From a virus (lineage: Duplodnaviria; Heunggongvirae; Uroviricota; Caudoviricetes): DNA of 64,000 nucleotides. Numbering within the stretch: the first letter of the stretch is position 1; each line of letters starts with the position of its first letter. A program made the translations under genes and the position numbers. Shown piece after piece: positions 17,445 through 38,324 of the stretch. Under the pieces are notes generated by a model that did not search any database, was not told the origin of the DNA, and was given only the letters and a program-made list of their open reading frames with translations. Where the stretch lies: the IMG/VR virus record IMGVR_UViG_3300024348_000012; one strand, written 5' to 3'.

Positions 17445-17476
17445 TTTGGCAAAGTGAAAAATTTGTCGTATATTTA
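17445..17476 (+). promoter_or_regulatory. conserved phage promoter box
   Basis: tttggcaaagtgaaaaatttgtcgtatattta; ends 5 nt before the UvdE ATG, so the transcript is likely leaderless or nearly so. Confidence 0.5.
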
Positions 17477-17480
17477 CTAT

Positions 17481-18368
17481 ATGAGTATAGGATATGCATG
17501 TATTAACCTTTCATTAGGTAAAAAGATTACAACGAATAGAACAATGGTTAAACGAACTTTCATAGCAAAGGGTATTGACTATGTATCGGATTTGGTATTG
17601 CAGAATGTTGCAGACCTCGAACGAATTATAGACTGGAACGAACAAAACGGAATTAAAATGTATCGTATGAGTAGTGAGATGTTTCCGTGGGCAACCGAAT
17701 ACGAATTTACTGAATTAAAAGATTGGAACGAAATACAAAAGATACTACAAAGATGTGGTGCAAAGGCAACAATGTATAAACAAAGATTATCATTTCACCC
17801 AGGACCTTTCAATGTATTAGTTTCACCAAAAGAAAATGTGGTATTGAATACGATTAAAGATTTGGAAGTGCATGGTAAAATAATGGACGCAATGGAATTA
17901 TCTAAAACACCTTACAATAAAATAAACATACATTGCAACGGAGTATATGGTGACAAGATTGCAGCAATGGATAGATTTATAACTAACTTTGACAAACTAT
18001 CTAATTCAGTAAAAAGTAGACTAACAATTGAGAACGATGACAAGGCTAGTATGTATTCAGTTAAAGACTTAATGTATATTCATAATAAGATTAACATACC
18101 TATTGTATTTGATTATCACCACCATACTTTTAACACAGGTGATTTGAGTGAACGAGATGCATTGAAGTTGGCAGTATCAACCTGGCCGAAAGGCATAACA
18201 CCGGCAGTTCATTATTCCGAAAGTAAAGCACTACATGAAAACAATACAAAAATTAAAGCCCAAGCACATTCCGATTATATTACAACCCTCCCCGATACAT
18301 ACGACATGGGTGTGGACATTATGGTTGAAGCAAAACAAAAAGATTTAGCAATATTAAAATTTATATAA
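17481..18368 (+). CDS. uvdE: UV-damage endonuclease (UvdE/UVDE family)
   Basis: N-terminal MSIGYACINLSL matches the UvdE start motif, then TIM-barrel-like length with His/Asp/Glu-rich motifs (HCNGVYGDK, DYHHHTFN). The track's 17454 GTG start lies inside the promoter box. Confidence 0.6.
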   Translation: MSIGYACINLSLGKKITTNRTMVKRTFIAKGIDYVSDLVLQNVADLERIIDWNEQNGIKMYRMSSEMFPWATEYEFTELKDWNEIQKILQRCGAKATMYKQRLSFHPGPFNVLVSPKENVVLNTIKDLEVHGKIMDAMELSKTPYNKINIHCNGVYGDKIAAMDRFITNFDKLSNSVKSRLTIENDDKASMYSVKDLMYIHNKINIPIVFDYHHHTFNTGDLSERDALKLAVSTWPKGITPAVHYSESKALHENNTKIKAQAHSDYITTLPDTYDMGVDIMVEAKQKDLAILKFI

Positions 18369-19763: not shown

Positions 19764-19787
19764 TACGAAACCACAAACCACGAACCG

Positions 19788-19818
19788 AAGGGGCGGGGGT
19801 TGGGGGCGAGTCGTTTTA
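19788..19818 (+). repeat. G-tract element GAAGGGGcGGGGGTTGGGGGcgaGTCGTTTT
   Basis: Striking G-runs in an AT-rich genome; a near-identical copy lies in inverted orientation at 28709-28746. Confidence 0.6.
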
Positions 19819-19857
19819 GGAAATTTTTTTGATAGTATAAATAAAACAAAATAGAAT

Positions 19858-20055
19858 ATGAAAAAATATACATTAGAGGTAATAATGAATGTATCCCAAA
19901 AACTTAAAGAATATGAAGTGATTGCAGATTATTTTGAATGGAGCAATAGTGGATGTTATATATTTTACACAAAGGACAAAGGTAAGAGTACAATAGTCAG
20001 CACATATCCAATTAGTAGAACAATAATAAATAAAATTGAAGATGTTAACGATTAA
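19858..20055 (+). CDS. hypothetical small protein
   Basis: 65-aa ORF. Confidence 0.35.
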   Translation: MKKYTLEVIMNVSQKLKEYEVIADYFEWSNSGCYIFYTKDKGKSTIVSTYPISRTIINKIEDVND

Positions 20056-20359
20056 AGGTATAAGTAATACAGGATTAAAAGAGTTTCAATGGGCAGGTTA
20101 TGAGTGGGTATTATATGGTATTGATACAACGAGTTTAGAATATCGTTTTATCTTTATACCAATGGAAGCAGGTCGGTACGATACACATAAAGCACAAATA
20201 GTCCTTTTAGATAGGAATAAAAAAAGAATAGGTAGTGAAGTATTGGGTTATAGATTATGGACAACGGATGGCAAACATACATACCTTAATACAAAGGACA
20301 TACCTAATTGGAGTGCACTAGTAAAAGTAGTTTATGAAAATAGAATGGTATGCAACTAG
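20036..20359 (+). CDS. hypothetical protein, MLTIKG-start family member
   Basis: MKMLTIKGISNTGLKEFQWAGYEW. Confidence 0.4.
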   Translation: MKMLTIKGISNTGLKEFQWAGYEWVLYGIDTTSLEYRFIFIPMEAGRYDTHKAQIVLLDRNKKRIGSEVLGYRLWTTDGKHTYLNTKDIPNWSALVKVVYENRMVCN

Positions 20360-20489
20360 AATTAGATAACGGAAAATTATGTTATACACCAACGTGTGTA
20401 ATATATAAGGGCAAAGAGTATCCTGCGCCCGTATATTTGAAAACACTATTAGCAATGGACTATATAGTAGACTTATTAAAAACGGGTGA

Positions 20490-20765
20490 GTGGAAAAAAT
20501 AAAACAAGATAATATGAAAATAGAATTAGGATTAAGTGTATTAAGTAAAAGAGAAACCTTATTGGGTGTGCAACTAACAACGCATAACGGAGTGAGTGTA
20601 AAAGATGGTGAGTTATGTAGTGAACGAGTAGTGGAATTTAGCATTGGAATTATCTTTGCGATATTCACAATAGGTTTCGTAAGTATCGGTAATAAGATTG
20701 AAACGCCGGACAATGTTATGAAAGCAATAGAAGCATTTGAAAGTGAAATGGACAAGAATAAGTAA
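20490..20765 (+). CDS. hypothetical protein
   Basis: 91-aa ORF with one hydrophobic segment. Confidence 0.4.
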   Translation: MEKIKQDNMKIELGLSVLSKRETLLGVQLTTHNGVSVKDGELCSERVVEFSIGIIFAIFTIGFVSIGNKIETPDNVMKAIEAFESEMDKNK

Positions 20766-20768
20766 GAT

Positions 20769-21005
20769 ATGAACATAAAGAAAAACAAAATAGGGTTTAA
20801 AGGAATAACAGACCCTACATACATAACAAAGCAATGGAGTAGGATAAGTGGGTATAAGACGAGAGGGTATCGGAATAGAGTTAAGTTGGTAGGTAGAAGC
20901 AGAACATATATTGACAATCCCGAAATAACCCAACATGTGAAACGAAACCGAATACACAAAATGGTTGTAAACGGGAAAACGATTTTGAATAACGAGATAA
21001 AATAA
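20769..21005 (+). CDS. hypothetical small basic protein (IKG/ISGY family)
   Basis: FKGITDP...WSRISGYKTRGY. Confidence 0.4.
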   Translation: MNIKKNKIGFKGITDPTYITKQWSRISGYKTRGYRNRVKLVGRSRTYIDNPEITQHVKRNRIHKMVVNGKTILNNEIK

Positions 21006-21336
21006 ATTCAGCAAGTAATGATAGCAGTAGTAATAACAATAATAGTAATGGTCCTGTATAAGGTATATATAACTAATAAGATAAACGATAAGAAAATAAA
21101 GGAATTAGAACAAAGACTGGACGAATACTATAAGAGACGAGAGAACGAATTACTGAATAAGTTTAGAGACATAGAACAATAAGATATGAATAAGATAACA
21201 AAAAAAGATATAATAGAAGCAGTAGGGTTTATTTTAATGGTAGTGGGTATTATAACCTTGCTATGTGTTGCATATGAAGTGAACAAAGTAAGTAAGGACA
21301 TAAAGGTATTAAAGTCTATGACAATAAGAAAATAGA

Positions 21337-22029
21337 ATGAATACGTTTTTTACATATCCAATAGAAGTGAACGAAATCAAACCTATGAAGCAGTGTACTA
21401 CATGCAATGAAATCAAACCAATAGAGGAATATCATATGCACCCATCCTCAAAGGGGCATATAAGATGTGAATGTAAAGTATGTGTTAATAAAAAAAATAG
21501 AATTAAGTTACAAAAGATATATGATAACCCCGAACGATTAGAACGATATAAACAACAAAAGAGAAATCATTTTTTAAGGAATAAGGATAAAGCAGAGTTT
21601 AGAGTTAATCATGGTATAAGGAAATTAATTATAGCGGGATTTAAGAGGGCAGATAAGGGTAGAAAGGTTATAAGAAAAATGGATAAGACTGAAAGCATAT
21701 TAGGTTGTAGTGTAAATTTCTTTGTTGAATATATTAAGTCTCAATTAACAGACAATATGACAATGGAAAATTATGGTAGTGTATGGATATTAGGACACAT
21801 AGTTCCACAGGGATATTCATTAGATGATCCAGATAAAATAAATTTACTTAATCATTATCTAAATTATGCTCCACAAAATAAATTAGAGAATGGTGAATTG
21901 AATTGTAAAATATGGAAACAAAAGTTTACTGACTACCATGCAATGAAATATAAAACAATTATAGATGAATATAATTTGTATCAATCCAATAGATTAATTA
22001 GTGTATCAAACAATACTATATCAAAATAA
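21337..22029 (+). CDS. HNH-type (homing) endonuclease, putative
   Basis: N-terminal Cys cluster CTTCNEIKPIEEYHMHP...CECKVC plus C-terminal GHIVPQGYSLDDPDKINLLNHYLNYAPQNKLEN (H...N...N/H spacing of the HNH motif). Confidence 0.5.
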   Translation: MNTFFTYPIEVNEIKPMKQCTTCNEIKPIEEYHMHPSSKGHIRCECKVCVNKKNRIKLQKIYDNPERLERYKQQKRNHFLRNKDKAEFRVNHGIRKLIIAGFKRADKGRKVIRKMDKTESILGCSVNFFVEYIKSQLTDNMTMENYGSVWILGHIVPQGYSLDDPDKINLLNHYLNYAPQNKLENGELNCKIWKQKFTDYHAMKYKTIIDEYNLYQSNRLISVSNNTISK

Positions 22030-22035
22030 ATAAAT

Positions 22036-22102
22036 TAGTGTCAATTAGTGGGTAAAAGTGGTAAATTGTGTTAAAGAGTGTCAATAAGTGTTATGTGTCA
22101 AT
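22036..22102. repeat. iteron-like GTGTCAAT repeats (x3) with AGTGG repeats
   Basis: GTGTCAAT at 22038, 22078 and 22095 in the noncoding region 3' of the HNH gene. Confidence 0.5.
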
Positions 22103-22496
22103 ATTAAATCGTTACATACTTACACACTACAAAGAAAACAAAACACTATAAAAGTATATCAGTCAATCAGTTTATATCCCACCTTTGCGTTCTGCGAAAC
22201 AATTTTTTTCTGCAATACAAAACAATTGACAAAAAGAATTTCTGCGATTAGTGATTTGAACAGAAAATAATTCGGTGAGTGGAAAATAAATCGCCTGAAA
22301 CCCTTACTGGCTGTGGATTGCCGGACATGCGCACTCTAACTATTAAGATACGAAAAATAATTGACATTGCCAAATCCTTACTGGCATTGAGTTTCATCTA
22401 ACATATCAATTGATTCATTAGATATTATTTAATTCAACGTGGAGTTAAGTTTGAAAATATCTAAAATAACTAAAATTCATTAGAAATTTATTAAAT

Positions 22497-22555
22497 GCAT
22501 AACTCGTTGATAATCAATGTGCCGGCATAAACTACTGGAAATCAACGAGTTATGC
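22497..22555. repeat. perfect 15-bp inverted repeat GCATAACTCGTTGAT...ATCAACGAGTTATGC (about 29-bp spacer)
   Basis: Seen directly; the left arm plus AATCAAT recurs at 22612-22631; CCTTACTGGC is also repeated at 22302 and 22376. Confidence 0.6.
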
Positions 22556-22651
22556 CACAAAAATTCTTTATTGAGTATCAGTGCTTTACATATATTTTTT
22601 TTTGTTATGCCCGTAACTCGTTGATAATCAATAATAATTCTTTTCAAAACA

Positions 22652-22682
22652 TTTGGCCAGAATAAAATATTGTCGTATCTTT
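22652..22682 (+). promoter_or_regulatory. variant of the conserved promoter box
   Basis: tttggccagaataaaatattgtcgtatcttt with the same TTTG-N20-TA spacing. Confidence 0.4.
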
Positions 22683-23096
22683 ATGTATTGGGTTGAGAGA
22701 ATGACCCCTCACATAGTAAAAAATTATAATATGAATAGTAGAATGACAAACGAATTTACCGAAACCGCTTTTAATACATCTCGTAACGAAAGACCTATTT
22801 ATAGAAACTTTGCCGCAAGTAAGTTATCTAATAGTATTAAACCTCAATCAATTGTTGAGTTTACCGATTTTATGGGTAGAAAACATAAAGTTGCGGTTCG
22901 TAATAATACGGAGTTGAAAAAACAAATGAAGTTTTTTGGTATGTTGAAAAAAGAATCTGCAACGATTAAACAAATTATCTCGCAGTATCCTATTAAATTA
23001 GGTAAGGTTGAAAAAAGGTTTCTTGCTGAATGTAAAAGAGAATTGAAGTCAGTATTGAAATTGAATAACAAACAATTGGAAATAGTGTTAGGTTAA
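22683..23096 (+). CDS. hypothetical protein
   Basis: ORF; the ATG at 22683 abuts the promoter box. The track's TTG start at 22653 lies within the promoter. Confidence 0.4.
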   Translation: MYWVERMTPHIVKNYNMNSRMTNEFTETAFNTSRNERPIYRNFAASKLSNSIKPQSIVEFTDFMGRKHKVAVRNNTELKKQMKFFGMLKKESATIKQIISQYPIKLGKVEKRFLAECKRELKSVLKLNNKQLEIVLG

Positions 23097-23111
23097 TACC
23101 TACACTATTTT

Positions 23112-23393
23112 GTGTTTAAAGTAATTAGTAAAGTAAAAATGAATAATATGAGTAAAAGTAAAGTAAATGTCAAAAGTAACTATGACATCAAAAAAGTAAA
23201 AAGAGTTATGAGAATGAAAAACGAAGGATTTGAACCCACATCGTTTGAGGTATTTAAGGTATCAGGTCCTAATAAGTTTAAAAAGTATTTCGTTAGTCGT
23301 AAAGATGCCAAATCGTTTATTGACAATTACACCGATACTAAAATGACATTGGGTATAGTAAAAAACATTATGAACGAAATTAAAGTAAAGTAA
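23112..23393 (+). CDS. hypothetical basic protein
   Basis: 93-aa ORF. Confidence 0.4.
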   Translation: MFKVISKVKMNNMSKSKVNVKSNYDIKKVKRVMRMKNEGFEPTSFEVFKVSGPNKFKKYFVSRKDAKSFIDNYTDTKMTLGIVKNIMNEIKVK

Positions 23394-23669
23394 TATGAAA
23401 AAAGAGATAACATTAACAATGACTTTAAAACAATTAGAGTCTATTATATTCACAATGGGTATCGCATTAGATACTGATTGTAGACCAATGAATGATTTGA
23501 GTGAAAAGAAATTTGAAAAGATATCAATACTACGTGAAGTGTTAGAAGATATGTTAAACCAAGCAAAATAATATGATAACAATAGGAGAATTTTTAGTAG
23601 TATCAATCGTATCAATTTTAGGATACGCATTAATCAAAACAATAGTACAAACCATTAAAAGTAAATAAT

Positions 23670-24071
23670 ATGAATAAGAATAACACAATAACACCAAACC
23701 ATTTAATAGACCCAATAGATAGTCCAAACGAAATTTGGGAAAGTAAAGTAGGATATGATTCAGCAAACAAACGAATGATTGCAAAAGTATATCATTCTTT
23801 ATACTACATTATGGAACATTCAACATTGAAACCATCGTGGTTGGCAGTAGTAAGACATATGTTAACAATGGATGGTCGATTGAATGAAGTGAAAGTCAAC
23901 GGATACTATTCAACGATACGCAAGAACTTAAAAGACATTGAGGTAATTCAATACAATGGTCGTAAGGGATTGAGTAAAGGTAAAAATTGGGATAGGTTTT
24001 TTAGTGATGAAGATTGGACCTGGTTTATTACTAACACTAATAGTGGTGGGTATGGTAGAATTTTAAGATAA
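23670..24071 (+). CDS. hypothetical protein
   Basis: 133-aa ORF. Confidence 0.45.
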   Translation: MNKNNTITPNHLIDPIDSPNEIWESKVGYDSANKRMIAKVYHSLYYIMEHSTLKPSWLAVVRHMLTMDGRLNEVKVNGYYSTIRKNLKDIEVIQYNGRKGLSKGKNWDRFFSDEDWTWFITNTNSGGYGRILR

Positions 24072-24085
24072 TTAAATTAGATAGT

Positions 24086-24403
24086 ATGAATAGAAAAAAA
24101 CGAAACGATAGAAACCACATAGTATATGAGATAGTCAATACTGAAAATGGTAAGAGTTATATTGGTATTACTGCCGCAATTGGTAGACGCTTCCACTACT
24201 CTGCTAAACTAAGATTACAAAAGCACTTTAGTCGTGCACGTAAAGAGAATAAGAATTGGGCACTATATAACGATATGAGAGAGTATGCACAAGAGGTGTA
24301 CGATTTGTTTATCGTTAAAGTAATAAGAGGTAAAGCTGCCGCACACCAATACGAAACGAAGCAATTGCAAAAGTTTCATTATGAATTAAATAGTACACAC
24401 TAA
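24086..24403 (+). CDS. GIY-YIG domain nuclease
   Basis: HIVYEIVNTENGKSYIGIT (the GIY...YIG motif) followed by conserved Arg (RRFHY) and Glu. Confidence 0.65.
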   Translation: MNRKKRNDRNHIVYEIVNTENGKSYIGITAAIGRRFHYSAKLRLQKHFSRARKENKNWALYNDMREYAQEVYDLFIVKVIRGKAAAHQYETKQLQKFHYELNSTH

Positions 24404-24413
24404 AATTGAATAT

Positions 24414-24785
24414 ATGAGTAAGAAAGTAAAAGAAATTAAGTTAGGTAAGAGAGGTTATAAAGCCGTAGTTAAGAATAAGAAATTCAACTTTGGTGATGGC
24501 AAGCACATCTATGAAGTGATTGAGTTATCAGGTCCCAAGATGGACAAACCTCGTATCTTTGTGGATGAGGAATCAGTACGAAAATACATTGGTGAATTGG
24601 ACATTGAAATTAAAATGGACAAGTTAGAGACTAGCTTAATCAAAAATGTATTAAGTAAGAAGGATAAAAAAGAAGTAATCGCATCCAAAGAATTAGAAGT
24701 GATTACAGCATGGGACGCAACTGCAAACATATCTGCTTATATGAGAGATGAAAATGCAAAGAGACCCGAAGATAACGATAAATAA
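24414..24785 (+). CDS. hypothetical protein
   Basis: 123-aa ORF. Confidence 0.45.
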   Translation: MSKKVKEIKLGKRGYKAVVKNKKFNFGDGKHIYEVIELSGPKMDKPRIFVDEESVRKYIGELDIEIKMDKLETSLIKNVLSKKDKKEVIASKELEVITAWDATANISAYMRDENAKRPEDNDK

Positions 24786-24786
24786 G

Positions 24787-24818
24787 ATTTGGTAATGTCA
24801 AAAATTTGTCGTATATTG
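24787..24818 (+). promoter_or_regulatory. conserved phage promoter box
   Basis: tttggtaatgtcaaaaatttgtcgtatattgt. Confidence 0.5.
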
Positions 24819-24929
24819 TATATAACAAAGAGACATTAACAATAAAGATACAAGCGAAGCAAGGGTAAAAGGAAGCCGCCCTTATGGAGCTTGACTATTA
24901 TAAACATTAAAGGCAACCAAAAAAACAAC

Positions 24930-25238
24930 ATGGCTAAGAAAATTAGTACAAAAGTGAATTATCAGGTAACAGAATTAGTAAACAACTTAAACGAAGCGGC
25001 AACGACTCAAAGTGAACAAAAGAGAGATTTCTTTACGACTAGAGCATTGTATAACGCAAAACGTTTATCAACTATCTTATCTACGGCTAAAGTGGGTGCG
25101 ATGGCATTAGTGTTAACTATTGGTATGGTAGCATGTGGTGCTCCTGCAACTGAAGTTAAGGCTGATTCAACTGCTTCAGTAGCTGTTGATACAACTGCAA
25201 CTGCTCCAGTAGCTGATACTGTAAGTGCAGTAAAATAA
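24930..25238 (+). CDS. hypothetical small protein with internal lipoprotein-like segment
   Basis: ATG at 24930 (the track's 24891 is a TTG); contains MALVLTIGMVACGAP followed by a T/A/V-rich tail. Confidence 0.4.
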   Translation: MAKKISTKVNYQVTELVNNLNEAATTQSEQKRDFFTTRALYNAKRLSTILSTAKVGAMALVLTIGMVACGAPATEVKADSTASVAVDTTATAPVADTVSAVK

Positions 25239-25244
25239 TTTAGT

Positions 25245-25400
25245 ACGAGGTTGTAAAGATTCCATAGCAATATGGTTGTAAAGATTCCTCGTTCTAATGA
25301 AGCGGTGAAGGTGTAATGGTATCCACACGGACGAAAGCCCGCGGGAAGCATGATAGTCCCCCAGATTATAGGAGTTAGTTCAATTCTAGCTCACCGCTCT
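25245..25400 (+). ncRNA. candidate structured RNA / regulatory element (GC-elevated)
   Basis: ACGAGG[GGTTGTAAAGATTCC-atagcaatat-GGTTGTAAAGATTCC]CCTCGT hairpin holding a 15-bp direct repeat. Then a GCGGTGA...TCACCGC stem enclosing about 85 nt with a tRNA-like T-arm (GTTAG-TTCAATT-CTAGC). No full tRNA fold could be built. Confidence 0.25.
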
Positions 25401-25479
25401 ATGTTGTTAGCATATTGGTTACTTTACAAATGGTTATTCTCCGATTTACTTTACAAAGAAAGCAACAACACTTAACGAA

Positions 25480-25507
25480 GTGGCTCCCCAATAGAGCCAC
25501 TTTTTTT
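25480..25507 (+). terminator. rho-independent terminator
   Basis: GTGGCTC-cccaata-GAGCCAC followed by TTTTTTT. Confidence 0.6.
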
Positions 25508-25524
25508 ATAACCAAAACAATGGA

Positions 25525-25956
25525 ATGATTTACTTAAACACAAAGGTTGAAAGTTTAGAGAGAAAGCATGCCGTAGCAATAGCAAATATGGCATTGCGAT
25601 GGTGCCGGAAACATATGGGTATAAACAATAGAAAAAAATATCAGCCCATCTGGTCCATAACAAAAGGATATGATAGCGACTGTGGTGAATATGATGCTAC
25701 TGATAATGAAGTACACATATACTACAACAATTGCTACGATGTAAGAGAACTAATTGGAACGTGTGTGCATGAGTGGACACATCAATTACAACCGATATTA
25801 ACAAAATACGATGCTTACCCCGGCTCATATAGTAGAAACCCATATGAGAGGCAAGCAAGACGAAACGAAGACAAATACGTGCGACCATGTTGGGAGCACA
25901 TTAAAACAAAATCAAAATGGATTACGCAATCAAAAAACTTAAACAAGACGAGATAG
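25525..25956 (+). CDS. putative HExxH zinc-metallopeptidase-like protein
   Basis: IGTCVHEWTHQLQP (HExxH) about 20 aa before conserved Tyr/Arg residues. Confidence 0.4.
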   Translation: MIYLNTKVESLERKHAVAIANMALRWCRKHMGINNRKKYQPIWSITKGYDSDCGEYDATDNEVHIYYNNCYDVRELIGTCVHEWTHQLQPILTKYDAYPGSYSRNPYERQARRNEDKYVRPCWEHIKTKSKWITQSKNLNKTR

Positions 25957-26147
25957 TATTAATGAAAAAGATTAAATCATTGCAGGACGGCAAACCTAAG
26001 TGGGCAGCGTCAAAGCAGTTAGATGAAATCAGGTCCGCTATACAATTGTTAGAACGATACAATGACATATCGGAGCAGGACATAGAGAATGAAGATGAGT
26101 ATTTAAAACAAATCTTTGAAGTACATCCTGCTAAAGCAAAAGCTTAA
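25917..26147 (+). CDS. hypothetical small protein
   Basis: 76-aa ORF overlapping the previous gene by 40 nt. Confidence 0.35.
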   Translation: MDYAIKKLKQDEIVLMKKIKSLQDGKPKWAASKQLDEIRSAIQLLERYNDISEQDIENEDEYLKQIFEVHPAKAKA

Positions 26148-26184
26148 GTCGGACAATCTTAATAAAAATAAATTCAGTTAATAT

Positions 26185-26391
26185 ATGAATAGTAATAGTA
26201 TAGACATAGAGAAGTATAATAGTATAGAGATAGATAGACATAACACTATGGGAGATAAAGATTTCATAGAGTGGTGTAAACAATATAACATAGGTAGTAG
26301 AGTAGAAGCAGTAAGTGAACAAAGACTAAAAGCAAATGAGTTAATGTCGCAGTACACTAAGTACACTCACTACATAAGTAAAAGAAATTAG
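26185..26391 (+). CDS. hypothetical small protein
   Basis: 68-aa ORF. Confidence 0.35.
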   Translation: MNSNSIDIEKYNSIEIDRHNTMGDKDFIEWCKQYNIGSRVEAVSEQRLKANELMSQYTKYTHYISKRN

Positions 26392-26442
26392 ATTTGGTAT
26401 TCTAATGTTTTCATTTTTTTTGATTTAGCAAGAGTGAGGTAT

Positions 26443-26600
26443 TAAGGTTATCCTCACGACCCCGCAATGAGTAACATCGTTGCGGGATTCTTGTGCTTAT
26501 TATTTTTTGCGAACAGTTACGTGTAGCTCAACGCAAACGAGGTTGCTGCAAATTGGGTCGGATACGTGCGAATACCGGGGACCAATTTTTTTGCTATGGA
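26443..26600 (+). other. hairpin-rich GC-elevated intergenic region (terminators and/or ncRNA)
   Basis: GTGAGG-n12-CCTCAC; CCCGCAA-n12-TTGCGGG followed by a T-run; GGTC...GACC-AATTTTTTT. Confidence 0.35.
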
Positions 26601-26725
26601 CGCAATTTTGACATGATGTATGATACACACAAAGTGAAAATAGGTGTTTTTCTTTTACCTAAGTGATACTTATCTATACGATATCGGAATTAGTTGACTT
26701 ATTTTTTAACCAAACTAAATTAAAT

Positions 26726-26836
26726 ATGAAAGTATTAGATTTCGTTTTACACTATCCGTTTTGGGTAGGTGTATTAGTAGGGTGGAAGTTGATACCTTAC
26801 GCAGTGACATTTGTGAAAAGGTTTATTAAATTATAA
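26726..26836 (+). CDS. hypothetical 36-aa membrane peptide
   Basis: MKVLDFVLHYPFWVGVLVGWKLIPYAVTFVKRFIKL, followed directly by a terminator. Confidence 0.3.
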   Translation: MKVLDFVLHYPFWVGVLVGWKLIPYAVTFVKRFIKL

Positions 26837-26844
26837 ACTGAGAA

Positions 26845-26874
26845 CCCTCTACTTAAAATGTAGGGGGTTTTTTT
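26845..26874 (+). terminator. rho-independent terminator
   Basis: CCCTCTAC-ttaaaat-GTAGGGGG followed by TTTTTTT. Confidence 0.55.
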
Positions 26875-26899
26875 ATTTACAAATAAGATATTTATTAGT

Positions 26900-27094
26900 A
26901 TGAAATTAAAAGAACTATTAGTAAAGATGTATGAAGGTAATTGTGAAAGATTGCCAGATGAGAGTGATGAAGATTATCTAACACGTTGTAGTAATTCAGT
27001 ATTCAATCTACCAGGTAATATCTCACAAAGAAGTAACCTACCCAATGTAATGAAAAAGAAAATTGTAATTCCTATCCCTATTAAAGAAAAATAA
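26900..27094 (+). CDS. hypothetical small protein
   Basis: 64-aa ORF. Confidence 0.4.
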   Translation: MKLKELLVKMYEGNCERLPDESDEDYLTRCSNSVFNLPGNISQRSNLPNVMKKKIVIPIPIKEK

Positions 27095-27095
27095 A

Positions 27096-27395
27096 ATGAT
27101 AAAAGAAAGTGTATATGTAGAAGCGGCAGATGCATTTGGTACATCAATTGGAGTTGCACATATTATTGGATTTAAGAATAAGAGTGAACAAATAAAGGAA
27201 GAAGGTATAGAATCGTTTAAGAAGATAGAGCCAGAATTAGAAGTGAACTATATCATTTTAGACGCAATAGATGAAAACAAATACCAAGAACTACAAAGAG
27301 AAGTATATAAGATAAAACAAAAAGGAGATAAAAGATTAAAAGAAAAAACAATTTATAGAAAGGCTTTAGAAATAGTATTATATGGCAAGAAATGA
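27096..27395 (+). CDS. hypothetical protein
   Basis: 99-aa ORF. Confidence 0.4.
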   Translation: MIKESVYVEAADAFGTSIGVAHIIGFKNKSEQIKEEGIESFKKIEPELEVNYIILDAIDENKYQELQREVYKIKQKGDKRLKEKTIYRKALEIVLYGKK

Positions 27396-28218
27396 TTTAA
27401 AGGTTAACCCTCAAAGATATGTAAAGATTAGTGAAAGGTTTTGGCAAGTTACAGCGTCTCCTGCTATTGAACCAGTTTTCATCGCAAGAACATCTATATT
27501 GAAAGATTTAACACCGGTATTAAAAACGGAAGGTTTTGTTATACAATTGGATAATCAGTATTTGCTCTCACAAAAAACATTAGATTTAATATTACAAAGA
27601 GATTCACCACACTACTCAATAGAAGCAAATGGTGATATATTAGGAGTACAAATAGGAAAATCTATACCCGTTCTTAAAATTGACCTAGCTCCAGTATACC
27701 AAACAGCAGAGTATAGACAAAGATTAGATAATAGTGCAGCAATTAAATTTGCAGAGTGGTTATACTTAGGAGATAAACACCCAATATATGATGTTCCTTT
27801 AAGATTAATAAATTGGATTGACTATATGTTAACCGATAAAATGGTATCCCCTACCGAAACCTTTGAGATATATGAGTTCGCATTAGAATTAGAAGTGCTA
27901 CAAAAAGAAATTGATTCATTTGCTACGGAGATAACATGGAATCAATCATCAGGCTCCATTATAATTGCAAACGATAAAACTACTAACTATATAACAAAGG
28001 TAAATGGTTACTTAGATGCACTTAGAAGAGACTTTGATTCTATTGTAAAAGTTTATTCATTAGGTATTATTCCTCCTGATAATGGAGACTCATTTACAAG
28101 AACTACCAATAAGATAGTGACCGATGAAATAGAAGGTGTGAATAGAGTGGTAACACTACAATCTGCCGCAGTAGCTAGTATAACACCAAGAACCACACCA
28201 ACACCAACACAAGTTTAA
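27382..28218 (+). CDS. hypothetical protein
   Basis: 278-aa ORF. Confidence 0.45.
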   Translation: MARNDLKVNPQRYVKISERFWQVTASPAIEPVFIARTSILKDLTPVLKTEGFVIQLDNQYLLSQKTLDLILQRDSPHYSIEANGDILGVQIGKSIPVLKIDLAPVYQTAEYRQRLDNSAAIKFAEWLYLGDKHPIYDVPLRLINWIDYMLTDKMVSPTETFEIYEFALELEVLQKEIDSFATEITWNQSSGSIIIANDKTTNYITKVNGYLDALRRDFDSIVKVYSLGIIPPDNGDSFTRTTNKIVTDEIEGVNRVVTLQSAAVASITPRTTPTPTQV

Positions 28219-28247
28219 TAATCACTATTTATTTCAAACGCAAACAT

Positions 28248-28517
28248 ATGCTAAAGTTACTAAGTGAAAAAATCGTTAAGTTATTAGAGAACATAGGAGT
28301 AGTGATGAGAATCATTGCATTCGGTACTCTTTCTATTATGGGCCCGTCTACTCCTTTCTTACTTATGTGGATATGGAATACCATTGATGCAATCATTCTA
28401 ACTTATTGTGCATGGGAGAGAAGTAATAGAGCATACCTTATTCTAAATATTTTTTGGATGTTAGTCGGACTTATAGGTATATACACATCAATTTTTGGAA
28501 ATGCAATCACCCATTAA
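28248..28517 (+). CDS. hypothetical membrane protein (3 TM)
   Basis: 89 aa with three hydrophobic helices. Confidence 0.45.
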   Translation: MLKLLSEKIVKLLENIGVVMRIIAFGTLSIMGPSTPFLLMWIWNTIDAIILTYCAWERSNRAYLILNIFWMLVGLIGIYTSIFGNAITH

Positions 28518-28656
28518 GTCTATATCGGACATTATAACCTGTATACTACTCATTCCTGTCATTTTGGTTGCCTTCATTGGTCTAACTATGTATTGGGTGT
28601 GTAAGTTTCCATTTTGGTACATAGAGAGGAAAGAATGGTGGAGGAATCACAAATAG
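28501..28656 (+). CDS. hypothetical 51-aa membrane peptide
   Basis: MQSPIKSISDIITCILLIPVILVAFIGLTMYWVCKFPFWY..., overlapping the previous stop in another frame. Confidence 0.3.
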   Translation: MQSPIKSISDIITCILLIPVILVAFIGLTMYWVCKFPFWYIERKEWWRNHK

Positions 28657-28708
28657 AGGTATACTATCAATAGAGGTACGATATTCTTATTCCAAAAATT
28701 TTCTTAAA

Positions 28709-28746
28709 AAACGACCTTTCCCCCAACCCCCACACCCCTTCATATG
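28709..28746 (-). repeat. inverted copy of the G-tract element (C-rich on + strand)
   Basis: The minus strand reads GAAGGGGtgtGGGGGTTGGGGGaaagGTCGTTTTTT, near-identical to 19788-19818. Confidence 0.6.
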
Positions 28747-28767: not shown

Positions 28768-28799
28768 TTTGAAAATCTAAAATATTTATCGTATATTTA
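28768..28799 (+). promoter_or_regulatory. conserved phage promoter box
   Basis: tttgaaaatctaaaatatttatcgtatattta; about 70-nt leader to the 28870 gene. Confidence 0.45.
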
Positions 28800-28869: not shown

Positions 28870-30327
28870 ATGAAGGCAGTATTAATATCTACGGATTACA
28901 TTAAAACAGCAACGGGTGAATATAAGGTTTTAGAAATAAATACAAGTACAAGAATCGTAGCGGCCGATAATGAAGGAAATCTACCGGGATTAGACTGGTC
29001 AAATCTAACTACCTTTATCCAAACTAATGGATTTACAAATGTACATTGTATAATACCAATGTACGATAAAGGGTTTGCAACTAAATTAAGTGAAATATGT
29101 GATAACATTGGTGGAATTACATTTCTTTCACATGAAACAAGTGGTACTTCAATTACTGTTCCATATATTGAAGATAACGAAACTACTCTTATTTTGAGAG
29201 TTTCATATGATACTACTGCAATTGTTGATGATGAGTATTGTAGAGATAATTATTCTTTCTTAAGAGCAATTAATGAATTAACAACAAAACCAAAAACTTA
29301 CATACCAAACATATCCGACGATTTTGAAAATTTATCAGAATTTAACTATACATTAGATTTACCGAATTTTATTATTAAAAAACGATATCCAAATTATGAT
29401 AAAAATGAATTCCCTAAATTATATAAAGTACAAAATTTAACCGAACTAACACAATTAAAAGGGTTAGTTAATGTTAATACGGAATTTTTACAAGAATTTA
29501 CAAATTCAGAAATTCTATCAAACAAAAGAAGTATTATCAGAGGAATTGATATAATATATGGTTCTAATTTAGATGTAATTAGTATGGGTGGATATAAAGT
29601 ACTTCATGCAATCACAGAAAATATATGGAGTAACACATTTGGAGATTTAGGACTATTAGCTAAAAAAGATAGACCAAAATATATTACATATTACTCACCA
29701 ACATCCGATAGAGCTACATATATTTACGATGAAGACCAAGAAGTTTTAATGGCGGATGGTAGTAGAAAATCATTTGCGGAATTAGAAGTGGGTGATTCTG
29801 TAAAATCAATAAATATCCCATCATTACCAGTAAATGAGACCGAATATAAAGTGGAGGAGTGGACAGGTAGTCATACTGATTTCACTACAAATTTTGCAGT
29901 TAGTGAAACAGCTATTGTTGTAAAAACTACACAAACAACATCTGATTTATTTATTAGAATTACATTAGAAGATGATATTGTATGGGATGATTTACCCGTA
30001 ACCCACCTTCTTGTTAAGAATGATGATGTTATAAGATTTAAAAATGTTAACAATTTGCAAATTGGTGATGTATTAGAATTATTTAGTACGGAAACCGAAA
30101 CTATTGTAAATAAAACAATTACTAATTTAGAAATATTATTTAAAGAAAATGAAGTAGTTGGAACTATGGATGTTGAACCTTTAGATTTGTTCTTACCATT
30201 AGTAACAAACTCATTCGCTATCGTTCAACACAATGCATGTAATGCAAACTTTTGTTCAAGTTTCGGAGGACAATGTTACAATTATGGTAAATGTGGTGAT
30301 TGTGGATATTATCAATGTGCTAAATAA
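28870..30327 (+). CDS. Hint (intein/pretoxin-HINT-like) domain protein with C-terminal 30-aa six-Cys tail
   Basis: Residues about 292-455 show Hint blocks: N-terminal VLMADGSRKSFAELEVGDSV (the Cxx[DG]T...G...I.eL..GD.V pattern with Val at position 1), TGSHTDF, and C-terminal MDVEPLDLFLPLVTNSFAIVQHN (blocks F/G ending in HN). Followed by ACNANFCSSFGGQCYNYGKCGDCGYYQCAK. Confidence 0.5.
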   Translation: MKAVLISTDYIKTATGEYKVLEINTSTRIVAADNEGNLPGLDWSNLTTFIQTNGFTNVHCIIPMYDKGFATKLSEICDNIGGITFLSHETSGTSITVPYIEDNETTLILRVSYDTTAIVDDEYCRDNYSFLRAINELTTKPKTYIPNISDDFENLSEFNYTLDLPNFIIKKRYPNYDKNEFPKLYKVQNLTELTQLKGLVNVNTEFLQEFTNSEILSNKRSIIRGIDIIYGSNLDVISMGGYKVLHAITENIWSNTFGDLGLLAKKDRPKYITYYSPTSDRATYIYDEDQEVLMADGSRKSFAELEVGDSVKSINIPSLPVNETEYKVEEWTGSHTDFTTNFAVSETAIVVKTTQTTSDLFIRITLEDDIVWDDLPVTHLLVKNDDVIRFKNVNNLQIGDVLELFSTETETIVNKTITNLEILFKENEVVGTMDVEPLDLFLPLVTNSFAIVQHNACNANFCSSFGGQCYNYGKCGDCGYYQCAK

Positions 30328-30494
30328 AAAATATTAATTATGGAAATTATACAAAACGAAATCGTTGAATTAACAATTACAGAGAAATCAGAAATTGCAA
30401 CAATATTTCAAAATATTATAACAAATATAAAAACTGATATTACAAATCAGTAAAAATATTTGGTAATTCAATTTTTTTTTATTATATTAGTGTT

Positions 30495-30770
30495 ATGGGA
30501 TTTAATTTAAAAACTATATCACAATCTTGGTTTGATTCGTACTTTGGTACCGATTCTCAAAGGGAATTGGCTAAAGAAAGATTAGGCATATGTGAAACTT
30601 GTCCGTCAAAAAAAGAACTTTTTAAGAATCAAAATTGGTCAGTTGTATGTGGTGAATGTGGTTGCCCAATTAATAAAAAAATATTTTCTAAAAAAATAAA
30701 AGAATGTCCATTGGACAAATGGAAAGAAGTTGATTCTAATTCTATTATTTTCTCAAAAAAAGTTATATGA
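30495..30770 (+). CDS. Cys-rich zinc-ribbon-like small protein
   Basis: CETCPS...CGECGCP...KECP. Confidence 0.45.
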   Translation: MGFNLKTISQSWFDSYFGTDSQRELAKERLGICETCPSKKELFKNQNWSVVCGECGCPINKKIFSKKIKECPLDKWKEVDSNSIIFSKKVI

Positions 30771-31264
30771 TAGAATCCATATATGGTTTTTTAAATGATG
30801 TGGAATTGAGTTTAGTAGATACATTTTGTTTAAATTTTAAACAAGAAGATAATCCACGTCCCACTAATTATTACAATAGAATGTTTCTAAATAAAGAAAC
30901 AGATTTAATTGATTATCAAAATAAAATAAAGAACCACTTATTCCAAAAATATGGTATTACATATGAAGTAGAAGGTATTTGGATAAATAAAGTAACACCA
31001 GATACAAATAAAGATGACGAATTTCATTTAGATAATAATGCGTTAACAATCGTTACTTATATAAATGATAATTTTATAGGAGGGGAATTTGAATATTTTA
31101 TATTAGGAATTAAACCAAATCAAAAAATAAATCCAAAAAGAAATTTAAGTTTAATTACAAACGATAAATTACCACATAGAGTATTGCCTGTAATTACAGG
31201 AGAAAGATATTCAATTGTGGTTTTTTGTGTTATACCAAATAAAGATAAAAAAACAATGTTATGA
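30767..31264 (+). CDS. 2OG-Fe(II) oxygenase, prolyl-4-hydroxylase-like
   Basis: HLD (HxD), GGEFEYF, second His PHRVLPV, and GERYSIVVF (the 2OG-binding Arg-x-Ser). Confidence 0.6.
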   Translation: MIESIYGFLNDVELSLVDTFCLNFKQEDNPRPTNYYNRMFLNKETDLIDYQNKIKNHLFQKYGITYEVEGIWINKVTPDTNKDDEFHLDNNALTIVTYINDNFIGGEFEYFILGIKPNQKINPKRNLSLITNDKLPHRVLPVITGERYSIVVFCVIPNKDKKTML

Positions 31265-31875
31265 TAAAGATTAATATCAACAATGAAATTGATATATATA
31301 AAACTACATTAGATTTTAATTCAAATTTTGATAAAAATTTATTTATTGATAAATTAAAAATTGTTGATACATTAGTAGATGCGTCCCTTCCAGCTAAAAA
31401 AACACCAGGTAGACAAGCCGCTTTATCTGAAATGTATATGCCTGAATTAAATTTTATAAAAGATAATATATCTAATTTATTATCAACGGAATTTAATGTT
31501 AGTAATAATTTTATTATGAAAACATGGGTTTATTATAGTGATAGTGATAATGGTTATAGTGGATACCACACACACGAAACATTGCACCCAAGGCCAACAA
31601 CGGCCGTTGGTAAGGTAAAAACGAATTATACATTTACATATTACCTACAAATGCCAAATAATCTTAAAAATGATGAAGGAAAGTTATTTTTAAAAACGAA
31701 ATCTGGATTTGAATTTGGTATATTACCAGAAGAAGATGATGTTTTTATATTCCCGGCCGACCTAGAACATAGACCTGAAACCAATCCCAATTCAACTAAA
31801 TCCAGAATTGTTATTGCCGGTAACACTGCTTTTTTTGATGAACATTTGAGAAAAACAGAAAAAAGCGTTTTATAA
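31261..31875 (+). CDS. hypothetical protein (possible cupin/oxygenase-like)
   Basis: His-rich motifs YHTHETLHP ... DLEHRPE ... RIVIAGN; weak. Confidence 0.35.
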   Translation: MIKININNEIDIYKTTLDFNSNFDKNLFIDKLKIVDTLVDASLPAKKTPGRQAALSEMYMPELNFIKDNISNLLSTEFNVSNNFIMKTWVYYSDSDNGYSGYHTHETLHPRPTTAVGKVKTNYTFTYYLQMPNNLKNDEGKLFLKTKSGFEFGILPEEDDVFIFPADLEHRPETNPNSTKSRIVIAGNTAFFDEHLRKTEKSVL

Positions 31876-33075
31876 ATGAATATCGTTATTGTAGGAGGAG
31901 GAACTGCCGGATGGATTACTTCTTTATTTTTACTTTCAGAATATAAAAATAGTAATATCACAGTTATTGAAAGTGATGTTATTGGTATATTGGGTGCAGG
32001 AGAAGGCTCAACACCACTAATGAAAAAATTCTTAAAGAAATGCAATATTGATGAAAACGATTTCATTAACAAAACGAAATCTACTTTTAAATTGGGTATT
32101 GATTTTGAAAATTGGAATGTTTGCAACAAATCGTATAAACATCCATTTATAAATGATTCCAAAGCATATCATTTTGATGCAAGACTAATTGCAGAATATT
32201 TTAAACAAATATCAATTAATAGAGGTGTAACTCACATAAATGGAATTGTAAAATCTTTTGTTCAAAATGATAAAAAAGATATTACCAATTTGGTATTATC
32301 GGATGATACAACAATACCAACTGATTTTGTATTTGATTGTTCAGGATTTCATAGATTACTAATCGGGAAATTATATAATTCAAATTGGGTTTCGTATTCA
32401 AATCATTTAAAAGTAAATACGGCCGTTCCATTTTTCTTAGATAGAACGGATACTAATATGGAATTGGATACCAAAGCAATTGCGATGGATTATGGTTGGA
32501 TGTGGCAAATTCCATTACAACATAGATGGGGATGTGGGTATGTATTTGATGGTAATAGAATAAACGAAATACAGGCCAAAGAAGAAATTGAATTAAAATT
32601 AAATAGAAAAATACAATCACCAAAGACATTAAAATTTTCAGCAGGTTATTATGATAATGTGTGGGTTAATAATTGTATTGCTATGGGATTAGCTAGTGGG
32701 TTTTTAGAACCATTGGAAGCAGTATCAATCCACATTACACTTATGGAATTGAATTTAATTAAAAACCATTTATTTAAAGATAACGATACTAATATAGTTA
32801 ATGAAAAATTTTCACAAATAATGGATGAACATTTTTTATTTATATATTATCATTATTTGTGTAATAAAAAAGATACAGAATTTTGGTCAGATTATAATTT
32901 GATTAGTGCACCATTGGAGTTACACAAATTTGTTAAAAAAGATTTAAACATATCGTTTAGTTCCGATGAGGATTATATTTCTAAATTCAAATATAATGAT
33001 GTTGTACAATATACACACTACGATTGGAAACTTATAAATGATGGAATTTTTGGTTTAAATAAATCTTTATTATGA
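31876..33075 (+). CDS. flavin-dependent halogenase (tryptophan-halogenase family)
   Basis: MNIVIVGGGTAGWITS (FAD GxGxxG), ITVIES...ILGAGEGST, the signature YGWMWQIPL (WxWxIP), and AMGLASGFLEPLEAVSIHI (the halogenase GxxSGFxEPLES block). Confidence 0.8.
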   Translation: MNIVIVGGGTAGWITSLFLLSEYKNSNITVIESDVIGILGAGEGSTPLMKKFLKKCNIDENDFINKTKSTFKLGIDFENWNVCNKSYKHPFINDSKAYHFDARLIAEYFKQISINRGVTHINGIVKSFVQNDKKDITNLVLSDDTTIPTDFVFDCSGFHRLLIGKLYNSNWVSYSNHLKVNTAVPFFLDRTDTNMELDTKAIAMDYGWMWQIPLQHRWGCGYVFDGNRINEIQAKEEIELKLNRKIQSPKTLKFSAGYYDNVWVNNCIAMGLASGFLEPLEAVSIHITLMELNLIKNHLFKDNDTNIVNEKFSQIMDEHFLFIYYHYLCNKKDTEFWSDYNLISAPLELHKFVKKDLNISFSSDEDYISKFKYNDVVQYTHYDWKLINDGIFGLNKSLL

Positions 33076-33440
33076 TTGAAACAATAAACATAAATACCAA
33101 ATTATATGTCAAATATATTGATAATATAAAAGGATTTGGTGTATTTGCAAATCATATAATTAAAAAAGACGAAATTATTGAAGATTGTTATTCTTTATTA
33201 ATTCATAATACAAATTCGGATTACGAACCTTATTATTTTTATTTTAAAGGTGACACTAAATTATTACCATTAGGATTTGGTTCTATTTATAACCATAACA
33301 ATAATCCAAATATAGCTTGGAAAATCGTAGATGATAATCGTAAAATAATTAGATTTTATGCAATAACCGACATCAATATCAATGAGGAATTGTGTCATAA
33401 TTACGGCCCTAATTATTGGAAAAATAAAAATATATTATAA
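33072..33440 (+). CDS. SET-domain protein methyltransferase
   Basis: GFGVFANHIIKKDEIIEDC...IYNHNNNPNIAW...NEELCHNYGPNYW (SET N-region, NHxCxPN-like and ELxxxYG post-SET-like motifs); about 120 aa as in viral vSET. Confidence 0.55.
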   Translation: MIETININTKLYVKYIDNIKGFGVFANHIIKKDEIIEDCYSLLIHNTNSDYEPYYFYFKGDTKLLPLGFGSIYNHNNNPNIAWKIVDDNRKIIRFYAITDININEELCHNYGPNYWKNKNIL

Positions 33441-34123
33441 TGAATACACTTTGGACATTTGGTGATAGTTTTACATTTGGTCATGGTTGTAGAGAAGATT
33501 GTAATTCATATACCGTAGATGATTATTATGGTTACAAAAAAGAAGGAGATGACATCTGGCCCAACCATTTAGGTAATTTGTTAAATTGTAAGGTTAGTAA
33601 TTTAGGAAAAAACGGAGTATCAAATGATTATATTTTAGATGCAATAATAGATAATTTTGATTTTATAAAAGAAAATGATTATATTATAATAGGAAAAACA
33701 TTCCATGGTAGAATTGAAGTACCTTTTAATAATAAAATTTATAAATCCTTTGCACATTATGAGGGTGGTAAGATAGATGAAAATACTAATAGTAAAGATA
33801 TATGGATAAAAAATGAATTTAAAGATTTAAACAAAGAAGTGATAGAAACAATTATTAATTTTCAATATTATTTTTCAAATGAATTATTTTATAAAGAACG
33901 AAATAATAAAAGATTTGAATTTATTAAGAATAGATTGCATAATGAAAAAAATGTAAAGTTTTCTTATATATGGGGAATAGAAGAAGATAAAAATTTTTAT
34001 CACACATTTCAACAAATAATACAGGCAACTAATGGCAAAGTAATTGATACACATTTTTCTTTTAAAGGTCACTTAGATTTTGCACATTTTATTTATAATA
34101 AAATTAATACCAAAATAATATGA
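33440..34123 (+). CDS. SGNH/GDSL-family hydrolase
   Basis: N-terminal TFGDSFTFGHG (GDSx block I), conserved Gly/Asn blocks and a distal DxxH-like motif. Confidence 0.55.
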   Translation: MNTLWTFGDSFTFGHGCREDCNSYTVDDYYGYKKEGDDIWPNHLGNLLNCKVSNLGKNGVSNDYILDAIIDNFDFIKENDYIIIGKTFHGRIEVPFNNKIYKSFAHYEGGKIDENTNSKDIWIKNEFKDLNKEVIETIINFQYYFSNELFYKERNNKRFEFIKNRLHNEKNVKFSYIWGIEEDKNFYHTFQQIIQATNGKVIDTHFSFKGHLDFAHFIYNKINTKII

Positions 34124-34665
34124 TTAAAAAAAAATTGGGGTTTACAACATATTGTTATGATGAATTTATAACAATAGAAGAACAATCTGAAATTAAAAAA
34201 TGGGCATTAGATAATGAAAATAAAATGCCACCGAATATGTCTGGCCCGTATAGAAGATTTAGTAGATTGGATAGTTTTAATAATATACCGAATATAATAC
34301 ATACTATAAAACAAAGAGTTATAGATGTTGAAAATATAAAAAATGTAATGGAAGCACCACAAAATGCCGATTGGGTAGGTATTCAATGGGAAAATGCCTT
34401 TGTTGAACCACATTTAGATGACAATGGCAACAATAAAAATTATTATACCAGACGATATAATATACTAGTATCATATCCTGAAGAAGGAGGCCAACCTATA
34501 TATGGTAATGAAATTTTAGAAGTTAAAGAAAGAATGATGTGGAGATGTGATGCGGGTTTAATTGAACATTCTAGTATACCAAATAAAGGAAAAATACCTA
34601 GAATTAATTTGTCTTTTGGATTTTTAATGCCAATAAAAACTACAACTAAAAAATCTTTATTATGA
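34120..34665 (+). CDS. 2OG-Fe(II) oxygenase, P4H-like
   Basis: EPHLDD (HxD), GGQPIY, IEHSS (distal His), RINLSF. Confidence 0.55.
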   Translation: MIKKKLGFTTYCYDEFITIEEQSEIKKWALDNENKMPPNMSGPYRRFSRLDSFNNIPNIIHTIKQRVIDVENIKNVMEAPQNADWVGIQWENAFVEPHLDDNGNNKNYYTRRYNILVSYPEEGGQPIYGNEILEVKERMMWRCDAGLIEHSSIPNKGKIPRINLSFGFLMPIKTTTKKSLL

Positions 34666-36914: not shown

Positions 36915-36943
36915 ATGTTATTGACACTTGAAAAAATAATAAT

Positions 36944-38323: not shown

Positions 38324-38324
38324 A

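Follow-up and report, generated by a model that had tools for sequence, protein, structure and literature searches.

The paired elements and their setting

The DNA considered here is a stretch of 64,000 nucleotides (the window) from IMGVR_UViG_3300024348_000012, an IMG/VR record of a tailed phage (Caudoviricetes); it is ~29% GC and carries nearly all of its open reading frames (ORFs) on the + strand. Two G-tract elements lie in it in inverted orientation, element A, a short form, at 19765-19836 on the + strand and element B, a long form, at 28741-28663 on the - strand. Between them they bracket a segment of ~8.8 kb (19837..28662) with ~25 small ORFs, all of them on the + strand and mostly without a family match. 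The pair, first pointed out in a model's reading of the sequence (the original prediction), is a real, lineage-specific paired DNA signal that had not been described before.

The two G-tract sequences are present where the original prediction had placed them, with coordinates that were a few bases off: the first copy, GAAGGGGCGGGGGTTGGGGGCGAGTCGTTTT, occupies 19787-19817 on the + strand, 1 nt earlier than the start of 19788 first given, and the second, GAAGGGGTGTGGGGGTTGGGGGAAAGGTCGTTTTTT, runs from 28741 to 28706 on the - strand, a few bases away from 28746-28709. Both copies are intergenic, as had been claimed. Their description as near-identical holds for a 12-nt core and its short flanks, and fails beyond them, where insertions and deletions separate the copies; at the same time the similarity is longer than first noted, since it runs on through A(A/G)GAAA-TTTTT to TTGATAGTATA. 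The layout common to A and B can be written GAAGGGG-N1-3-GGGGGTTGGGGG-N3-4-GTCGTTTT-A(A/G)GAAA-TTTTT-...-TTGATAGTATA, with an extra 23-nt spacer before TTGATAG in B that A does not have. The 12-mer GGGGGTTGGGGG has two exact occurrences in the window, in A and in B only, and a profile hidden Markov model built from 60 relatives' elements recovers no site in the 64 kb but these two (E values of 1.4e-10 and 9.7e-10, against E 4.8 for the following match), so that the pair is no chance match. The elements had also been called essentially the only G/C-runs of the window, which was an overstatement: there are nine runs of at least five G and three of at least five C, and four of these 12 runs are inside the elements, although A and B do rank first and third among the most GC-dense 25-mers.

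Element A consists of three parts. The exterior module ACGAAACCACAAACCACGAACC (19765..19786, +), C/A-rich and outside the bracket, is kept in 17 A-type IMG/VR copies and missing from other A-type variants (TTTTAATAACAAAGGGGC...), and thus is not a universal part. The G-tract core follows at 19787..19806 (+) and reads GAA GGGG C GGGGG TT GGGGG, and the inner arm at 19810..19836 (+) is made of GTCGTTTT, AGGAAATTTTT and TTGATAGT. The GTCG and TTGATAG of the inner arm are found in all copies of the family, while the T run after GTCG is swapped for GTCGAATT in some A variants. A promoter-like sequence, TTGATA-17-TAGAAT (19829..19857, +), overlaps the end of A and points into the bracket; it is the second-best consensus match in 17.5-31 kb, and its promoter function is uncertain because the -10-like part is not conserved in relatives. 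A role of TTGATAG as a -35/-33 box was rejected, given that its downstream -10/-7 partner is not conserved.

Element B has its G-tract core at 28720..28741 (-), reading GAA GGGG TGT GGGGG TT GGGGG, and its inner arm at 28663..28715 (-), where GTCGTTTTTT and AAGAAAATTTTT are followed by the 23-nt variable spacer and TTGATAGT. The distance from core to TTGATAG is 47-80 nt in B-type copies, and some of their spacers contain a second GTCGT.

A family of composite elements in related phages

Pattern scans of IMG/VR, with GC-rich chance matches set aside, found ~75 related elements with 63 distinct sequences, located on contigs that are AT-rich (27-37% GC) and measure up to 251 kb. A and B are thereby shown to be copies of a composite DNA signal of ~55-90 bp, composed of G tracts, GTCG, an A/T-rich bendable stretch and TTGATAG. 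The copies fall into two types. The short type A has the G tracts, GTCG, AGGAAA and a T run fused to TGATAG, often preceded by ACGAAACCACAAACCACGAACC; the long type B has the G tracts, three to six nucleotides (N3-6), GTCGTTTTTT, AAAGAAAATTTTT, a variable 4-40 nt in which a second GTCGT sometimes occurs, and TATCTCTATTGATAG.

The two five-G tracts (G5) are kept in most copies and the first, four-G tract (G4 tract) is optional. The 2-nt loop between the G5 tracts varies (TT 60, TA 10, CT 4, AA 4, and TC, AT and TG once each), and one lineage has G6-A-G4-CC-G4 in place of G5-N2-G5. When the A/T-rich arm alone was used for searching, 13 loci were recovered and G5-N2-G5 was present in 13/13. Among relatives A is 87-95% identical, against ~75% for the adjoining coding DNA, and the elements are thus under stronger constraint than neighbouring DNA. 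An ORF can be read through B on the C-rich strand; conservation of a protein was rejected as the explanation, since the spacers differ in length by numbers not divisible by three.

The distribution of the family is narrow. A search of 185,579 species-representative genomes (596 Gb) gave one match, on a 2.8-kb, 28% GC phage contig mis-binned in a Cyanobium metagenome-assembled genome, for which reason a host-derived motif or Chi-like site was rejected. Megablast, tblastn and blastn against INPHARED found neither the elements nor their region in cultured phages, an absence that holds at the sensitivity of blastn, and the core sequence was not found in a phage context in the literature. The signal is therefore shown to be specific to one family of uncultivated AT-rich phages of ~240-250 kb.

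Two further observations concern the motif itself. The contig L001 has a second, degenerate A-like copy at 4312-4360 (-), GGGGCTGGGG...GTCGG...TTTTTTTGATAGT, in the same orientation as A and 0.8 kb from the A element of that contig (5121-5141), which indicates that tandem duplication of the element can occur. The degenerate pattern also brought up an unrelated group of GC-rich (52-58%) viral contigs (L081, L086, L088, L089, L093, L095, L098 and others) that have in common the conserved motif CGCTACGGTGA-GGGGGAGGGGGG-AAGGGTCGTTTTT.

Convergent pairing across genomes

An A-type and a B-type element stand on opposite strands, with their G strands facing each other, in the window and in 16 further contigs. 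The distance from A to B is 8.93 kb in the window; 9.56, 9.93, 9.56, 9.18, 7.35 and 9.48 kb in six IMG/VR contigs; 9.35, 8.2 and 8.56 kb in the loci L023, L067 and L009; and 8.47, 9.8, 8.4, 8.5, 9.6, 9.6 and 8.85 kb in seven contigs fetched via the GIY-YIG nuclease gene of the bracket, which gives an overall spacing of 7.35-9.93 kb for the 17 contigs. A 116-kb contig of a relative contains these two copies only. The motif is thus neither scattered genome-wide nor missing from relatives, either of which would have told against the original prediction, and it occurs as two copies in a fixed pattern. Genes within and outside the bracket lie on the same strand in four segments whose ORFs were analysed and in ten further loci with called genes, and the genomic neighbourhood of the pair is the same across relatives, without variation of an insertion site. 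These results support the view that the two copies are a functional pair delimiting a defined segment.

Content of the bracketed segment

The bracket had been said to carry an HNH nuclease, a GIY-YIG nuclease and an iteron region, and all three are located within it. The HNH nuclease is encoded at 21337-22029 (+) and the GIY-YIG nuclease, a stand-alone protein of 105 amino acids, at 24086-24403 (+). The exact amino-acid sequence of the latter was found in 855 blocks of a public contig collection, while the genes around it share no more than 30-90% identity when those genomes are compared; the conservation of this protein is unusually strong. The segment also encodes a possible metalloprotease and, adjoining B, two small membrane proteins, and hairpin terminators lie at 25478 and 26841. 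The 1-2.8 kb adjoining A are variable between relatives, with at least seven different sequences following TTGATAGT among 17 A-type loci, nine of which have the same upstream flank, whereas the right two thirds of the bracket are syntenic, with 70-99% protein identity.

The iteron region is a conserved non-coding block of ~190 nt (22000..22190, +) with the repeat types GTATATCAA and AGTGTNAA, within a non-coding stretch that reaches ~22650. It is 82-86% identical in at least 11 relatives, always 1-2.8 kb inside from A, and is a candidate origin or protein-binding array. TTGATAG was considered as a further iteron copy and rejected, because the common word TATCAA is too frequent (2.25 per kb).

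A promoter-like motif of 30 nt, TTTGGTAATGTCAAAAATTTGTCGTATATT (P), recurs in the window at 12147-12176, 17445-17474, 24788-24817 and 38325-38354 on the + strand and at 22345-22374 on the - strand, five matches where none is expected, and degenerate copies are found at 22652-22681 and 28768-28797. It fits a TTGgtA-17-TATAtT geometry, and in relatives it has the Bacteroidota -33/-7 geometry (TTTG...TAnnTTTG). The degenerate copy at 28768..28797 (+) lies just outside B and points away from the bracket; many relatives have a well-conserved P motif (TTTGG.AATGT.A...TCGTATATTTG) at the same position. The leftward copy in the conserved non-coding region (22345-22374, -) could drive a minus-strand non-coding RNA.

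Folding potential of the elements

The original prediction had proposed that three to four G tracts could form a G-quadruplex. The two-layer fold obtained by modelling and the conservation of the G tracts make this plausible, while a canonical three-tetrad intramolecular form is impossible. G4Hunter scores are 1.6-2.4, and a two-layer G-quadruplex appears in the ViennaRNA minimum-energy structure of 6/6 elements. The canonical (G3+N1-7)x4 motif is not matched, as there are at most three tracts (G4, G5, G5), and with two G5 tracts alone being universal a canonical three-tetrad intramolecular fold is precluded. A two-tetrad fold would not need the central G of either G5 tract, yet this G never varies, and a universal pair of tracts with such centres suggests recognition by a protein, or a quadruplex formed between molecules, more than a simple two-tetrad fold. 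The quadruplex potential of the elements, as modelled, thus appears real but limited.

The suggestion of terminator-like signals does not hold for terminators of the hairpin type, since there is no conserved stem and folding is no better than that of shuffled sequences (z -0.6 to -1.6). A-type copies can form an imperfect hairpin; B and many A variants lack its C-rich 5' partner. The whole window has no Rfam match at gathering score and no tRNA or tmRNA gene; together with the insignificant folding z-scores and the missing hairpin partner, this led to rejection of an RNA gene or structured RNA.

Surroundings of the segment and probable host

Outside the bracket, the ~10 kb to the right of B (28870-38000, compared with the locus pairs L002/L056, L016/L048 and L027/L058) are far more diverged than its interior. 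The protein of 485 amino acids encoded at 28870-30327 is ~31% identical in relatives, against 70-99% inside the bracket, and has a Cys-rich C-terminus and a weak intein-like match. Modification-type enzymes are encoded in 30767-45000, including at least two 2OG-Fe(II) oxygenases (30767-31264 and 34662-35222), a tryptophan-halogenase-like flavoprotein (31876-33075) and a carbamoyltransferase (43202-44899), and in relatives radical-SAM genes adjoin B; the enzyme cluster could represent a DNA or metabolite modification pathway. Other genes of the window encode a UvdE protein (17454-18368), an SPFH/Band 7 protein (12196-12735) and an FG-GAP repeat protein (6935-8218).

The phage probably infects a member of the Bacteroidota. 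Of the 50 long ORFs in the window, 49 have no Shine-Dalgarno motif upstream, and a window protein of 1542 amino acids has distant matches in Flavobacterium phage immuto, which together point to such a host, as does the Bacteroidota geometry of the P motif in relatives. No close cultured relative of the lineage was found.

Possible boundaries of a long terminal repeat

All genes run in one direction, so that the inverted copies would be transcribed into opposite RNAs, a G-rich one from A and a C-rich one from B, and a role at the level of DNA, symmetrical about the segment, is the most economical and seems to fit best. The reading that is preferred here, tentatively and at rather less than even chances, is that A and B may be the boundaries, with processing and packaging signals, of a long direct terminal repeat (LTR) that carries early genes. 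The bracketed block would be the LTR of the virion DNA, collapsed by assembly to one copy. Acting on the replicative concatemer, a nuclease or terminase of the phage would recognise the G-tract signals at the two boundaries and cut only the G strand at each. As the sites are inverted, the cuts would fall on opposite strands, on the top one at A and on the bottom one at B. Such cuts would leave 5' overhangs spanning the block, and extension of the 3' ends by strand-displacement synthesis would then provide both daughter genomes with the full repeat. Staggered cutting followed by fill-in is the model proposed for the duplication of T7-type terminal repeats. DNA entry into the cell would start at the A end, where a promoter is followed by the hypervariable small genes, and early or host-takeover genes would be expressed from there. 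The G tracts may be recognised as duplex DNA or, once unwound, take effect as a G-quadruplex, either two-tetrad or intermolecular. The pair may also bind a replication protein, as first suggested, or a packaging protein, which is close to this preferred reading.

The LTR reading draws on the exact pairing, the phage specificity and the strong constraint on the elements, and on the content of the bracket, in which ~25 small ORFs, the HNH and GIY-YIG nucleases, promoters and terminators resemble those of known LTRs. Known LTR regions are highly variable, like the genes adjoining A. The nearest precedents are the inverted repeats at the LTRs of K-like staphylococcal phages and, for the type of motif, herpesvirus pac1, both described below. 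Several points weigh against the LTR reading. The ends of contigs are not concentrated at any one nucleotide of the elements, although this is not expected for a collapsed LTR anyway; and genes have crossed both boundaries between relatives, which fits recombination-prone junctions of any kind. The LTR boundaries of T5, an LTR phage, have no inverted repeat, and the feature is therefore not general among such phages. No terminase gene from which the packaging type could be deduced (TerL) is recognisable in the window, the element sequences are unrelated to the inverted repeat of K-like phages, and the iteron block in the bracket could equally indicate a role in replication. Contig ends were also considered as physical ends and rejected: contigs containing B end mostly inside the bracket, at scattered positions, a pattern better explained by a bracket interior common to co-occurring strains.

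A more specific and improbable form of the same idea would make G5-N2-G5 a telomere-like, quadruplex-forming signal of the termini in a lineage of jumbo phages. A phage nuclease would nick the G strand at either boundary of the 9-kb terminal repeat, and the exposed G strands would fold or pair as quadruplexes that guide cleavage by the terminase or keep the genome ends joined, as a bacterial-virus counterpart of the G-quadruplex of herpesvirus pac1. The GIY-YIG protein, with its identical sequence across hundreds of contigs, is a candidate for the nickase.

If the LTR reading is true, the physical genome ends and the first-injected block of early, probably anti-defence, genes could be located directly from sequence for a widespread group of uncultivated ~240 kb phages, which is normally impossible for phages known from metagenomes only. 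It would also mean that packaging signals made of G tracts and a T element, so far herpesviral, occur in tailed phages, and it would offer a tractable system to probe G-quadruplexes in terminase cleavage. Whatever its function, the pair is a strongly conserved, strictly paired and lineage-specific DNA signal that is new to description.

Other readings of the pair

A transcriptional role is unlikely, yet it retains an appreciable share of the probability. The elements would act as boundaries or insulators that stop or pause RNA polymerase without a hairpin, by way of a G-quadruplex or a bound protein, each one having a gene upstream and, downstream, the promoter of the following unit, to which it may supply A/T-rich upstream sequence; the G-rich strand would be the RNA or non-template strand at A and the template strand at B. 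Their position speaks for this, as both copies are intergenic and beside promoter-like sites, and relatives have a conserved P-type promoter immediately next to B on its outer side and, in many cases, one behind the TTGATAG of A. The junctions at A and B have no hairpin terminator, whereas others have one (e.g., 12111-12142, before the P motif at 12147), and a quadruplex is predicted on the G strand. However, two copies per genome contrast with many P-type promoters and gene junctions, and the fixed convergent arrangement 7-10 kb apart is left unexplained. In several relatives, moreover, the next start codon lies ~20-40 nt beyond the C tract of B with no P-type motif between them, so that the downstream gene may use read-through and B may not terminate + strand transcripts, and the loss of the T run after GTCG from some A variants also counts against a transcriptional stop.

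Somewhat less probable is a role in replication, in which the elements would flank an origin region containing the iteron block and serve as R-loop or quadruplex priming sites for two opposed unidirectional starts, as polar barriers, or as initiator sites. The 190-nt block is conserved in the bracket of all relatives covering it, at its regular distance from A, the inverted orientation suggests symmetry about an internal point, and G clusters on a non-template strand favour persistent RNA-DNA hybrids, as in ColE1 RNA II and mitochondrial CSBII. On the other hand, no evident promoter would transcribe the G strand of B, the bracket has no recognisable initiator or replication genes, and the TATCAA-type words common to TTGATAG and the iterons are, at the frequency given above, too common to link the two. 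To our knowledge there is no precedent for origin flanks 9 kb apart.

It is doubtful that the elements are recombination anchors, that is, conserved patches of homology or hot spots targeted by nucleases that border a hyperplastic region of accessory genes, through which co-infecting relatives would swap modules, as proposed for the PeSL cassettes of T4-type phages (PMC2839356, PMC4122927). Besides this precedent, the diversity of sequences after TTGATAGT behind a common upstream flank, the passage of genes across both boundaries and the two nucleases inside the bracket agree with such a role. Against it, PeSLs are many per genome and in direct orientation, not two and inverted, a linker role explains neither G tracts with variable loops nor constant spacing, and the variability could stem from location rather than from the function of the element.

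The original prediction had also considered a mobile or invertible segment. That A and B are the terminal inverted repeats of such a 9-kb unit is suggested by two related sequences inverted around a discrete segment and is largely refuted, since the A(+)/B(-) orientation never varies in the 17 contigs, nor gene orientation in the four segments and ten loci, no junction joining an A outer to a B inner part was seen among the ~75 elements, Pfam, PHROGs and NCBIfam gave neither a recombinase of the serine or tyrosine type nor a transposase for the ORFs tested, all above the smallest sizes, in the bracket and ~7.5 kb on either side, the A and B cores can be unlike within one genome (TT against CT, TC or TA loops; G6-A-G4-CC-G4), which is unfavourable for site-specific crossover, and the arrangement is vertically inherited.

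Comparison with known systems

The invertible segments of phages, such as Mu G and P1 C with their invertases Gin and Cin, resemble the present locus in that inverted repeats flank a multi-kb phage segment. They differ in that here no invertase gene is present among the ORFs tested, no alternative orientation has been seen, and the segment holds early-type small genes, not tail-fibre alternatives. The PeSLs of T4-type phages are likewise conserved intergenic composite motifs, placed by early promoters and edging variable genes (PMC2839356, PMC4122927), but they are numerous, direct and hairpin-based, in contrast to two inverted elements in 64 kb with no conserved hairpin.

A closer parallel in composition is herpesvirus pac1, a T-rich element flanked by G tracts that guides cleavage by the terminase and in vitro folds into a G-quadruplex (PMC13595911, PMC13386867). 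Like pac1, the elements described here combine a short T-rich part with G tracts, and pac1 stands at genome termini, where the terminase that reads it shares its lineage with those of phages. Unlike them, pac1 acts jointly with a different partner signal, pac2, and has a longer T-rich stretch, and a link between the present elements and a terminase is hypothetical.

The K-like (Twort-like) staphylococcal phages have LTRs of 7.6-8.5 kb that are set off from unique DNA by 12-bp inverted repeats, TAAGTACCTGGG and CCCAGGTACTTA (PMC6022877, PMC4111496). In the phage K record the annotated LTR boundary falls within the 12-bp inverted repeat, and the annotated LTR of 8,486 bp contains 21 small hypothetical ORFs, an HNH nuclease and terminators. 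As an observation apart, further G runs, GGGGGCAGGGG and GGGGGTGGG, are present at 8425-8470 of phage K (L160, KF766114), just inside the right LTR boundary of a ~30% GC genome. The present elements have no sequence homology to TAAGTACCTGGG, so the relationship is one of analogy only; they are longer composites (55-90 bp) with insertions and deletions between copies, they belong to another host and phage lineage, and the terminal redundancy of the block is putative. In its architecture, nevertheless, the locus is like that of these myoviruses: in both cases a large AT-rich phage (K being ~30% GC) has short inverted sequences with G/C runs that bracket a block of ~8 kb, the boundaries are intergenic, and the block is filled with small ORFs without assigned function, mostly on the same strand, together with an HNH nuclease and terminators.

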